From Gammaproteobacteria bacterium (GTDB taxonomy: Bacteria > Pseudomonadota > Gammaproteobacteria > CAJXQU01): a DNA stretch of 64,000 nucleotides. The notes beneath the pieces were generated by a model that was not told the DNA's origin, searched no databases, and worked only from the letters and a program-made list of their open reading frames with translations. The stretch spans positions 704,001 through 768,000 of the forward strand of contig CBDEGZ010000003.1 of NCBI GenBank assembly GCA_965238175.1. Reading direction: 5' to 3'. The position numbers and the translations under genes are program-made. Positions 41,910-45,518 of the stretch are shown here, piece after piece (positions within the stretch are counted from its first letter, which is position 1; each line of letters starts with the position of its first letter).

Positions 41910-42045
41910 ATAATAACAATTGGCCTATATTATGCTTAAAAACTATAACTTAAAACCTGCTAAGACCCACAACCGGAGAGTAAGATGAAAGCGAGCAATC
42001 TATTTAATCTGAACTCGGGATAAGGAATAAACTATTATTCTTATT

Positions 42046-43271
42046 TGTAGAAATTCAGATTTGATCTGACAGTTACCCAATTATCAGTAACCGACTGTCA
42101 GGTTAAGTTTAATTCACAAACTTTTCCTTCCAGATAGCTTGTCCGTCGATGAGTGTTTCCATCGGCGTCCTCCCGCAGCACATTTTGCCTTGGTGAGTTC
42201 GTTGAGTATTGTATTTGAGCAACCATTCGTCAAGGTCGAGTTGCAGTTCATCAATCGATTGGTAAATTTTCTTACGCAAAGCGACTTGATAAAACTCATT
42301 GAGGATCGTCTTATGGAATCGCTCACAAATACCATTCGTCTGAGGTGATTTGACCTTGGTTTTGGTGTGTTCGATATTGTTCAACGCCATATAAAGCTGA
42401 TAATCATGCTGGTCAGCTCGCCCACAATACTCCGTCCCTCTATCTGTCAAAATGCGCAACATAGGCAAACGTTGTTCTTCGTAGAATGGGAGGACGCGGT
42501 CATTGAGCATGTCAGCTGCCGTAATCGGTGTTTTAGTCGGGTACAGTTTCGCGTGAGCGACCTTGCTGTAAGTATCAACAAACGTTTGTTGATAAACCCG
42601 ACCAATGCCTTTGAAAGTACCGACATAGTAAGTATCTTGCGAGCCAAGATAACCAGGGTGTGCCGTCTCTATCTCGCCACAAGCCTCATCGTCGTCTTTC
42701 TTGCGTTCCATCGCCGCGACTTGAGACTCAGTGAGGATCAAGCCTTCACCAGCTACCTTATCAGACAATGCCTTCAGGCGATCTTTAAAGCAAGCAAGAC
42801 CATGACGAAGCCAGATACAACGAACGCCACTGGGTGAGACAAATGTTCCCCGTTTGCGCAGCTCGTTACTGGTGCGCGTTTGACCATGTGCGGGCTCTTC
42901 CAGTGCATACTCGAGCACAACGGTTTCAATAGCCGGGTCGATTCTGTTTTTAAGATTTGGGGTACGCCGATTACGATCAAACAAGGCTTCTACACCGCCT
43001 TCATCAGCCGCTTCTTTGTAGCGATAAAATGTATCTCTGGACAAACCCATCATCTTGCAGGCTTTTGAGACATTGCCGAGTTCTTCAGCGAGATTGAGTA
43101 GACCAACTTTATGTTTTATAACTTTGTCATTAGTATGAATCATGAGAGTTACCTCTTTGTGTTTTGATGTTTACGTTGCAGTTACATCAAAGCGGGTAAC
43201 TCTCACTAAATCAAGCGTCGCTACGCTCCGCTTGATTTAGTGATGTGTCAGATTGGGTCTAAACTTCTACA
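42046..43271 (-). mobile_element. IS481-family insertion sequence
   Basis: TGTAGAA...TTCTACA IRs; TCTTATT direct repeat. Confidence 0.92.
42109..43143 (-). CDS. IS481 transposase
   Basis: GYLGSQDT, LTDRGTEY, SPQTNGICERFH. Confidence 0.95.
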   Translation of the reverse strand: MIHTNDKVIKHKVGLLNLAEELGNVSKACKMMGLSRDTFYRYKEAADEGGVEALFDRNRRTPNLKNRIDPAIETVVLEYALEEPAHGQTRTSNELRKRGTFVSPSGVRCIWLRHGLACFKDRLKALSDKVAGEGLILTESQVAAMERKKDDDEACGEIETAHPGYLGSQDTYYVGTFKGIGRVYQQTFVDTYSKVAHAKLYPTKTPITAADMLNDRVLPFYEEQRLPMLRILTDRGTEYCGRADQHDYQLYMALNNIEHTKTKVKSPQTNGICERFHKTILNEFYQVALRKKIYQSIDELQLDLDEWLLKYNTQRTHQGKMCCGRTPMETLIDGQAIWKEKFVN

Positions 43272-43435
43272 TCTTATTGATTCAATAGTTTAACTTAAGG
43301 TTAAAGGGCTTCTATAGTAAGATTCTTCACATATGCTCAGAATGACAGATTTTCCCTATATTATTACCATCCAACTTGTTGAATCATAAAGAGTTTTAAA
43401 TTCTCTTATCCCGAGTTCATATATGGTCTCCTCCC

Positions 43436-43665
43436 GTATTGCAAGATAAAACATTCAGATAACAGGGACAGGATTGCTGTCATATATACGGCCCTCAATG
43501 AAGTTTTCAACTTCTGACCTGGATGTATTACGCGCCTATTTTCCTTATCAGGTTATCGGTATTAGTTACCCCTGAGCTCGACAGGTTTTCAATAGGCTGG
43601 TTTGACCTGTTATGCCATCTTTAGTTTTACCTTCGCAATTCGTTGAAATGATTTGTTCTCTCTAT
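43436..43665 (-). ncRNA. Putative bridge/seek RNA region of the IS1111 element
   Basis: Non-coding end downstream of the transposase containing segments that match the target and the donor junction; exact RNA ends unknown. Confidence 0.65.
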
Positions 43666-44679
43666 TTAGGCCGGTGAGTAGTCATCACCAGAAACCGTTA
43701 TAGCCCAGGCCATTCTTGCCATTTTGTTGGCATACGCCACACACGCTCGATTATGCCCCCGCGTCTCAACTAAACGATTAATCCATTGACTCAGTTTATC
43801 GCCTTTCGTTTTGGCTCTTGATACCACGGCCTTCGCGCCTAGAATTAACAAACAACGAAGGTATTTATTGCCGCGTTTACTGATCCCCAGTAGCACCTCT
43901 TTACCACCACTACTGTACTGTCGTGGAACAAGTCCTAATGAGGCGGACACATCGCGCCCTTTGTGATAATGAGCGCCGTTTCCCACTTCATTAAAATACG
44001 CGCTCGAGACCATCGGCCCAAACCCTGGAATAGTTTGTAAGCGTTGGCAAATCGCATTGTTTTTTGCCGATTGAATGATCAATTGGTCAAATGTCGCAAT
44101 ACAGGCATCAAGTGATTGCCATTGTTCCTTTAGCTGGCGCAGTATCCTTTTGAAAGTAACGGACAACCGTTCGTTCTCATCACTTAATAGCAACGGGATA
44201 GATTGACGTAGGGTATTTAGGCCGGGACGAAGGCTAATGCCATATTCTGCAACAAGCGCTCTCATTTGGTTACATAATGCGGTTCTTTGTCTGACCGCTA
44301 AGTCTCTTGCTTTATGTTGTGCCTGGTTGTCTTGTTGCTCAACTGATTTAATGCCCACACTTTTTAAATGAGGTTGTTTCGCAGCAACGGCGATGGCCAA
44401 GGCATCGTTATAATCATTCTTATTGCCGATTAGAAATGCGTTAACATGCTGAGGTGGTAGTAATTTCACCTGATGTCCCTGTTGTTGTATCGCTCGGGCC
44501 CAATACTGTGACGTTGCACAAGATTCTATTGCGACTAAACAAGGAGGTTGAGATTGAAAAAAGGAGAGTACCTGCGCTCGCTTTAACATTTTCTTTTTGA
44601 TTATACGCCCTTGTTGATTACAGCAGACAGCATGAAATACGTTTTTTGCTATGTCTAACCCGATTGTTGTAGTCTTCAT
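43666..44679 (-). CDS. IS110 DEDD recombinase/transposase
   Basis: IGLDIAKNVF, AIESC, KNDYNDA, GLVPRQYSSGGK; start at MKTTTIG with GAGGAG RBS. Confidence 0.95.
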   Translation of the reverse strand: MKTTTIGLDIAKNVFHAVCCNQQGRIIKKKMLKRAQVLSFFQSQPPCLVAIESCATSQYWARAIQQQGHQVKLLPPQHVNAFLIGNKNDYNDALAIAVAAKQPHLKSVGIKSVEQQDNQAQHKARDLAVRQRTALCNQMRALVAEYGISLRPGLNTLRQSIPLLLSDENERLSVTFKRILRQLKEQWQSLDACIATFDQLIIQSAKNNAICQRLQTIPGFGPMVSSAYFNEVGNGAHYHKGRDVSASLGLVPRQYSSGGKEVLLGISKRGNKYLRCLLILGAKAVVSRAKTKGDKLSQWINRLVETRGHNRACVAYANKMARMAWAITVSGDDYSPA

Positions 44680-45518
44680 TTTGGTCTTCTCCTCTTTTGA
44701 TTGTGTGTATGTCAGTTCAATCATGGCACCTAGATGCCGTTAGGGGGAGGAGACCATCACATCAGGTTATTTATTAAGTGTCTTGAAAATGAAGGAATTA
44801 AATATATTTTTGGTGTTCCGGGTGAAGAGAACCTGGATATGCTAGAGTCATTATAAATGACTCTTCCATTGAGCTTATTCTTACCCGTCATGAGTAACCT
44901 GCAGGTTTTATGGCAGTAACCTTTGGCGTTTCCTTTTTAGGTCTACTAGCTAATCCTAAAAAAAATATTGGACATAGACGAGGCAGTATAAGTGTATAAT
45001 TAGGTCTAGCTATATTAAGAACTTCTGGTCTTCTAGAAACTATAAATCTCATCGGATTATTAGTTACAAACAATTAAAGGCTAATGACTTGTTTTTAATT
45101 CATCTTAAAAAGCTATCAAAGTAAAACCAGTGGAAATGTTTATAGCCTTCTATTTATGATTAGTTCTACGATAAGAACTATCATTTTACTCAGGATTTGA
45201 GTGAAAATGTTAGTTTTTCGAATCATTTTTCTCTTGTAAGTTTCTTTAGGACTAACACTTTTTGGCGCAAGTGCAATTATTTACATAGCGATCCTAAAAT
45301 AGTTGCCGTTAAATGTTACTTAGTCATTTTACTGCTGCACAATTCATTGTTGATATTTTTGCTTTTCCTTGGAGAACTGATTATCCTTACCAAAGATTGG
45401 TAGATGTAGGATTTATAGCTGTGGGTATTGTTATTGTTGGGGGGCTTCAGGCTAACTTATGATTTACTGACATGGTTAAATTGCCCCTTCTCCTGCGTCA
45501 TTATGAGCTTAATTTAGT

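Follow-up and report, generated by a model that had tools for sequence, protein, structure and literature searches.

The window analysed here, a stretch of 64,000 nucleotides (nt) from a Gammaproteobacteria bacterium (assembly GCA_965238175.1, contig CBDEGZ010000003.1, positions 704,001 to 768,000), carries on its minus strand an insertion sequence of the IS1111 group, which occupies 43420-44764 and measures 1345 base pairs (bp) when one copy of its TG core is counted at the left end. Read 5' to 3', the element consists of the extension TGATGTG, the subterminal repeat ATGGTCTCCTCCC, a ribosome-binding site, the open reading frame of the transposase, a non-coding region, the repeat GGGAGGAGACCAT and the extension ATA (Table 1). 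The non-coding DNA amounts to 246 nt downstream of the gene, against 85 nt upstream. An earlier note, made from the letters of this stretch, had placed an IS1111 element at these very boundaries. They are confirmed by a 1352-nt assembly unitig covering 43417-44768, by the copies in the same genome (24 complete and one cut by a contig end), and by uninterrupted sites reading TAACCTGAACTCGGGATAAG. Since such uninterrupted sites are present, the element adds only itself and one copy of the shared core.

Table 1. Features of the insertion sequence and of its flanks, in window coordinates.
Feature	Position	Strand	Basis or remark
Whole insertion sequence	43420..44764	-	24 complete copies with identical ends and different flanks; empty target sites; unitig
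Left terminal extension TGATGTG, 7 nt	44758..44764	-	First two bases, 44764-44763, are the TG core
Left subterminal inverted repeat ATGGTCTCCTCCC	44745..44757	-	Perfect 13-nt inverted repeat with 43423-43435
Transposase gene, 337 aa	43666..44679	-	Pfam, NCBIfam, alignment of homologues
Right subterminal inverted repeat GGGAGGAGACCAT	43423..43435	-	Followed by the 3-nt extension ATA at 43420-43422
Flanking left target half TAACC	44765..44769	-	Comparison of the flanks of the copies
Flank copy of the core TG, then right target AACTCG	43412..43419	-	Comparison of the flanks of the copies
Predicted bridge/seek RNA scaffold, ~196 nt	43441..43636	-	Consensus fold of 64 sequences; closed by long-range helices P1-P3
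Target-binding stem-loop (predicted)	43534..43597	-	Basal stem, inner CCU/AGG stem, internal loop, apical hairpin
Right target guide CGAGCUCA (predicted)	43573..43580	-	Pairs with top strand TG+AACTCG, one C-A mismatch at +2
Left target guide UAACCUG (predicted)	43549..43555	-	Identical to left target TAACC + core TG, so pairs with bottom strand
Donor-binding stem-loop (predicted)	43476..43533	-	Helices 7-9, 94-100% paired
Right donor guide UACAUC (predicted)	43522..43527	-	Pairs with core G + ATGTG of the left end; last pair G-U
Left donor guide AUAUAUG (predicted)	43481..43487	-	Identical to right-end ATATA + core TG
TTGCAA, -35-like hexamer	43439..43444	-	In the circle, 17 nt before TATGAT formed across the junction
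Predicted joined ends of the circle		-	...CCATATA-TG-ATGTGATGG...

The transposase gene is intact, as that note had also held: its frame is open at 44679-43666 and encodes 337 amino acids (aa). A start at an upstream in-frame ATG, which would give 352 aa, is disfavoured because the homologues have 337 aa. The protein matches PF01548 (DEDD_Tnp_IS110) over residues 6-146 (E-value 3.2e-16) and PF02371 (Transposase_20) in its C-terminal domain (E-value 6e-20), and scores 302.9 bits, against a cut-off of 140, with the NCBIfam model NF033542, 'IS110 family RNA-guided transposase'. Residues D9, E52, D89 and D92 are invariant across 15 homologues and are probably the DEDD residues. The motif GLVPRQYSSGG aligns with IS621 (chain 8wt6), and the C-terminal domain aligns weakly (E-value 2e-4) with the solved transposases of IS621 and ISCro4, including the segment P-R-x-Y-x-S-G. 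The closest proteins on record are 83% identical (from a metagenome) and 79% identical (from Shewanella, named 'IS110 family RNA-guided transposase'), and the best plasmid-borne relatives, at 45-46% identity, are unnamed 'IS110 family transposase' genes of Klebsiella, E. coli and Enterobacter.

As described in the sections of PMC11187229 used here, IS1111 elements have subterminal repeats of 11-13 bp with extensions of 7 nt on the left and 3 nt on the right, and transposases of ~330-350 aa with the C-terminal motif GL-P----S(t)G. It is by their subterminal repeats, their 7+3-nt extensions and the long non-coding region downstream of the gene that IS1111-type elements are told apart from IS110-type ones (PMC11187229). 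The element in the window has the DEDD domain, PF02371 with its motif, the repeats and extensions, and the long downstream non-coding region, and it inserts in a specific orientation at one sequence, duplicating nothing beyond the shared core. Every feature of membership that could be tested was found, and we class the element on its sequence as a member of the IS1111 group of the IS110 family.

We searched the host genome (3 contigs, 3.35 Mb) for further copies. It holds 24 complete ones, one cut by a contig end and a few fragments. Two single-nucleotide polymorphisms make up all the variation among the 24 complete copies, and one of them is private to the window copy, which has G at 43494, an unpaired position, where the other 23 have A. 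The transposase gene is open in all 25 copies, and their proteins are 100% identical. Among the other six genomes of the genus and family, five have no match at an E-value of 1e-30 or better, and G005 has a relative that is 40% identical. Because the copies are open and nearly identical and a close relative is missing from these six genomes, the pattern points to a recent arrival followed by spread through transposition. A BLAST search of the host genome revealed no solo copy of the right end.

The insertion sites of the complete copies delineate the target. The AACC at positions -4 to -1, the core TG and the A at +1 are each invariant across the 24 sites; T occupies position -5 in 23, the exception reading AAACC. 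On the right side, T is found at +4 in 22 sites, A at +2 in 19, C at +5 in 17, C at +3 in 16 and G at +6 in 14. The left flanks differ beyond -5 in all 24 sites and the right flanks fall into several repeat families; the target corresponds to a degenerate 20-bp palindrome of the TTAACCTGAGCTCAGGTTAA type. These sites, together with the uninterrupted ones, agree with the natural target that the earlier note had reconstructed. Its proposal of a TGA core had to be abandoned: in the relatives, nothing beyond YG is common to left junction and right flank, so the core is a dinucleotide, TG in this element, and the third base, A, is common to donor and target by coincidence.

The relatives on which the remaining analyses draw were collected from genomes (80 loci) and metagenomes (79 loci). 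The right-end type of the window element is found in 67 of these, which makes 68 loci with the window; in 65 of them the right end measures 200-300 nt, and 64 of those are distinct. A further 21 loci, with different ends, form a second subfamily, and the remaining fetched loci, whose ends are of other types or are truncated at contig borders, were set outside the analysis. We saw at least 85 loci of the wider group of the element, in marine, sediment and soil Proteobacteria.

An end-to-end alignment of the 64 right ends supports a folded RNA. The RNAalifold consensus has 37 pairs, 22 of them with compensatory changes, and the addition by eye of three long-range helices gives a structure of 49 pairs. 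Of the cells of this structure, 94.3% are paired; sliding the partners by 1-3 columns lowers this to 34-38%. Both-sided changes occur in 29 of the 49 pairs, and none of 500 shuffles reached any of five measures. Three helices, nested in one another (43636-43625/43451-43441, 43619-43613/43464-43458 and 43610-43606/43472-43468), close off two stem-loops, both of which contain a large internal loop. Helices 4-6 of the target stem-loop are 98-100% paired, with both-sided changes in 11 of 15 pairs. One hairpin of the RNAalifold consensus (columns 43-45/49-51) was replaced by a long-range helix (columns 40-44/194-198) that is 99.1% paired; the relative L140 compensates for both, so that the hairpin may yet be real. 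The single-sequence minimum-energy fold of the 246-nt end has a z-score of -2.7 and does not clearly display the loops, and the comparative fold was used instead.

Four motifs had been proposed as guides in the earlier note, and all are present at the places given there, on the minus strand: CGAGCTCAGG at 43580-43571, ATAACCTGA at 43556-43548, ACATC at 43526-43522 and ATATATGA at 43487-43480. The check suggested there, that of seeing in a fold whether the guides lie in internal loops, comes out in their favour: CGAGCTCAGG and ATAACCTGA form the opposing sides of the first loop, and ACATC and ATATATGA those of the second. Their extent needs some trimming. The guide within CGAGCTCAGG stands, without the final GG, and that within ATAACCTGA stands as UAACC plus UG, without the first A, as these letters are not conserved as guide positions. 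The sequence AACCTG at 43587-43582 was considered as another guide and rejected, as it is scaffold, conserved across the family regardless of the target.

The guides of the first loop follow the targets. The perfect partner of the right target guide is TGAGCTCG. Across 63 loci with 48 distinct targets, the 5' loop side, paired as well as possible with the core and right flank of its own element, scores 7.66 of 9 nt on average, against 4.95 (standard deviation 0.95) with the flanks of other elements, and none of 2000 permutations attains this value. The 3' loop side, scored against the left flank and core in 52 loci, gives 6.87 for the own target and 4.96 for others, again with none of 2000 permutations. 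The typical left match among relatives covers five flank bases plus the core, in agreement with the five invariant flank bases in the host genome. To allow for relatedness, each element was also compared with the relative nearest to it on a protein tree among those with targets that differ from its own in at least 3 letters; the pairs share no tips, though their paths may share branches. For the right guide, the own target is better paired than the swapped one in 27 of 28 comparisons, the other being a tie; for the left guide this holds in 23 of 25, with 1 loss and 1 tie. The earlier note had stated that its reading would fail if the guides did not covary with the targets in homologues; by both kinds of test they do covary. 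Within the host genome, at least 5 of 8 positions of the ideal partner of the right guide are matched in 22 of 24 occupied sites, against 189 of 1459 unoccupied chromosomal [AT]AACCTG sites (Fisher's test, p 2e-17).

The seven closest relatives illustrate how this comes about, since their scaffold is nearly constant and their loop sequences vary with the flanks. L141 has CGAGUUCA and UAACCUG and is inserted in CTAACC|TG|AACTCGG. L142 and L147 carry CGAAUUCA and are inserted before TGAATTCG. L059 has UAACUUG and is inserted after CTAACT|TG. Finally, L140 has UAACCUCA and CGAGCUG and is inserted in CCCGAGC|TG|AGGTTAGG, a closely similar quasi-palindromic sequence that it entered on the opposite strand, with the guides swapped. 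It is from this natural retargeting in relatives, and from nothing else, that we infer that the element may be reprogrammable.

The second loop is related in a similar manner to the ends of the element. Over 78 loci of both subfamilies, position 4 of the left end faces the 5' loop side as A-U in 45, G-C in 19 and T-A in 7, with a mismatch in 7; position 5 pairs in 72 loci (42 Watson-Crick and 30 G-U pairs) and position 6 in just 29. This pattern implies a right donor guide of 6 nt, made of the core G and five bases of the left end. The 5-nt match ACATC, described in the earlier note as weak, is contained in UACAUC and sits at a position that covaries with the left end across two subfamilies. 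On the other side of the loop, the core base of the left donor guide is C when the right junction reads CG and T when it reads TG in 61 of 64 loci.

Two observations concern the register and identity of the core among relatives. The ends of the second subfamily (e.g., L159, L173 and L166) read ATGG(T/A)ATGGACC... and ...GGGTCCATATA, the left end being preceded by TA and the right end followed by TG. An AT core, shifted by one base, fits both junctions better than TG, and the register of the core thus seems to differ between the subfamilies. Separately, eight relatives have unlike cores at their two junctions: L066, L195, L190, L067, L206, L207 and L070 have TG at the left junction and CG at the right one, and in L203 this is reversed. 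Where TG stands at the left junction, the left target guide of the RNA reads CG. These unlike cores may record recombination between differing cores, or a later change from C to T at CpG.

Taken together, we consider it highly probable that this is a recently active IS1111-group element whose right end encodes a bridge (seek) RNA of ~200 nt for its own DEDD/serine recombinase. The RNA-guided reading of the earlier note is upheld by the covariation of guides and targets, the placement of the guides in internal loops, the compensated fold, and the order of the guides, which agrees with the published order of IS1111 seekRNAs, where the match to the top strand lies 5' of the match to the bottom strand (PMC11187229). 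One internal loop would read the target, and the second would read the joined ends of the excised circle, with UACAUC pairing with G+ATGTG and AUAUAUG corresponding to ATATA+TG. Strand exchange would take place at the TG core, and the element would enter TAACC|TG|AAYTCG in one orientation, duplicating nothing beyond the core. By the precedent of the family, the RNA would be made, bound by the protein and direct the recombination, and a circular intermediate would create a promoter at its junction. The hexamer TTGCAA is nearly invariant in the family, and TTGCAA-17 nt-TATGAT fits the junction promoter described for the family, an assignment made by match to the consensus.

Several results count against this interpretation and have to be set beside it. 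An Rfam 15 scan of 43000-45200, at E-values up to 1, gave no match on the element (its two matches lie outside, at chance level, with E-values of 0.11 and 0.38), so the class of the RNA, bridge or seek, is assigned by analogy. In the sequence of this element by itself, the matches are within chance: in mononucleotide shuffles scored by the longest exact match in the first 225 nt of the right end, 56 of 1000 reached the 9 nt matching the target and 117 of 1000 the 8 nt matching the circle junction. As such matches are not significant alone, the case rests on the relatives. The right target guide has C opposite +2 in all copies, at a position where the sites mostly have A, and U stands there in the nearest relatives with the same target; the founder therefore spread with a fixed C-A mismatch. 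The left donor guide has 3 independent pairs on supported branches, with a median p of 0.5 in the sign test. We found no sigma-70-like promoter inside the element on its strand, and no circle-junction joint in the assembled contigs of four runs, from which rare forms are dropped. Finally, the sole site of the genome that is perfect for both guides, at C3:393936, is unoccupied. This perfect half-site directly adjoins an occupied half-site in the other arm of the palindrome, and it may be empty because filling both arms would create a long inverted repeat.

The chance matches and the lack of an Rfam model are what would favour a right end that is merely a 3' untranslated region or a DNA end bound by the protein, with coincidental complementarities. 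We regard this as very improbable, given that the complementarity tracks each element's own target throughout the family and that covariation of base pairs backs a folded RNA. Still less credible is that the copies are an inactive relic multiplied by duplication of host DNA. Several right flanks do belong to repeat families common to copies, as such duplication would have it; against it, the left flanks of all 24 differ beyond TAACC, the copies are practically identical with open genes, and five of the six other genomes lack a match at the threshold given above, the relative in G005 being just 40% identical.

The alternative that deserves most attention accepts the target loop and nothing more: a short RNA of ~65-100 nt would carry just the target guides, the protein would recognise the ends through the subterminal repeats, and the donor loop would be structural. 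Such an arrangement has a precedent in ISEc11, for which an 82-nt seekRNA with the target matches alone was sufficient and more efficient than the long form, as reported in the sections of PMC11187229 used here. In our data it is favoured by the small variation of the donor ends, which leaves few independent changes with which to probe the left donor guide, and by a right donor guide of just 6 nt whose core-T position is mismatched. Since the ends of the elements vary less than the targets, the evidence on the donor loop is thinner. Against a target-only RNA, positions 4 and 5 of the left end pair with the proposed guide in 71 and 72 of 78 loci and display three and four standard pair types, respectively, in two subfamilies with different ends; the left donor guide tracks the core of the junction with its core base in 61 of 64 loci; and the donor stem-loop is as conserved and compensated as the target stem-loop. 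We thus deem a target-only RNA unlikely, and favour, from these comparisons, a true bridge RNA with two working loops.

The surroundings of the element contain other mobile DNA. An IS481/IS3-like element lies at 42041-43276, 138 bp from the IS1111-type element, with an open reading frame on the minus strand (42109-43143) that has HTH_29 and rve_3 domains. At three other sites of the genome, the end of this type of element, TGTAGAAGTTTAGACCC, follows the IS1111-type element after just TGAAC. In one run, a contig (depth 10.7) leads from 43276 back to 42041, with 32 letters on its shorter side; a circle junction, a tandem copy and an artefact of the assembly graph are all conceivable sources of this joint. 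A contig of run X1 (depth 8.7) joins 42000 to 44768 and omits both insertion sequences and the 138 bp between them. It is indistinguishable from a repeat-induced join, with 30 letters on the shorter side, 6 of them ambiguous. The contigs of the four runs contain no clean empty site at the window locus. Two runs labelled with the same species contain hardly any of the element and do not cover its flanks, and are thus uninformative on its absence.

Elsewhere in the genome, decayed fragments of two other IS1111-type relatives were found at C3:2357902-2358383 (L219) and C3:2897426-2898116. One is 79% identical in DNA over the first 400 nt and has a TGA stop, and the second is 35% identical in protein and has three stops. 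At C3:1393265-1393349 (L218, positions 116-200) there is a perfect palindrome of 76 bp, made of the first 34-37 nt of the left end and their own reverse complement, and bordered by TAACC and, at the opposite end, by GGTTA. It resembles what would be left of two copies inserted tail to tail in the arms of a palindromic target once the long inverted repeat had been deleted.

The 24 insertion sites in one genome, together with dozens of relatives with readable guides and targets, constitute a natural data set. They allow effective guide lengths to be read without experiment (5+2 nt for the left target guide, about 6+2 nt for the right target guide, 6 and 7 nt for the donor guides), and the site data reveal that the right guide tolerates a mismatch. 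The results also suggest that, in the IS1111 group, changes in the donor ends go along with changes in the donor loop; published experiments on this group had not settled what the long RNA does. More practically, the element accounts for 25 repeats of the host genome and for some breaks in its assembly. It is quite possible, if short of probable, that the element and its relatives form a naturally retargeting, perhaps uncatalogued clade of compact RNA-guided recombinases, in which targeting is achieved mainly by a 7-nt left guide and a tolerant right guide. A full-text literature search with both 13-nt repeat sequences found no related paper; a catalogued close relative of the element may exist.

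IS621, an element of the IS110 group with a bridge RNA system, recombines at a CT core. As in its bridge RNA system, all four guides predicted here include the dinucleotide core, whereas the RNA lies in the right end here and in the left end in IS621, the order of the guides within each loop is reversed, and the subterminal repeats have 13 bp here, against 2-3 bp (PMC11208160, in the sections used here). The effective guides of our element are very short (7 nt for the left target, 6 nt for the right donor). The similarity of the proteins (8wt6-8wt9 for IS621) is confined to the C-terminal domain (E-value 2e-4). Bridge RNAs have been predicted in 93.0% of the IS1111 elements of ISfinder (PMC11208160).

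The element is also alike in organisation to the seekRNA elements ISEc11, ISKpn4, ISPa11 and ISPst6, which have a DEDD transposase of ~340 aa, repeats of 11-13 bp with 7+3-nt extensions, a long non-coding region 3' of the gene with the top-strand match first, and relatives naturally retargeted through changes of the guides (PMC11187229). Like ISPa11, which has a REP target, the element uses a folded or palindromic repeat as its target (PMC11187229). It differs from these elements in its target sequence and in being known from sequence alone. In the sections of the seekRNA study drawn on here, the donor guides were left unassigned (PMC11187229); here, the second loop is complementary to the joined ends, with the support of covariation. 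ISPpu9 of Pseudomonas putida, in turn, is multi-copy, lies in repetitive palindromes and has a small-RNA gene (Ssr9) 3' of its transposase gene; unlike our element, it has extra solo copies of the RNA gene, and the likeness is drawn from descriptions of ISPpu9 (PMC12288879). As both its mechanism and its family have been described before, and NCBI has a product name for such proteins, the element is a new example of an RNA-guided recombinase rather than a new kind of system, and it brings no new principle.

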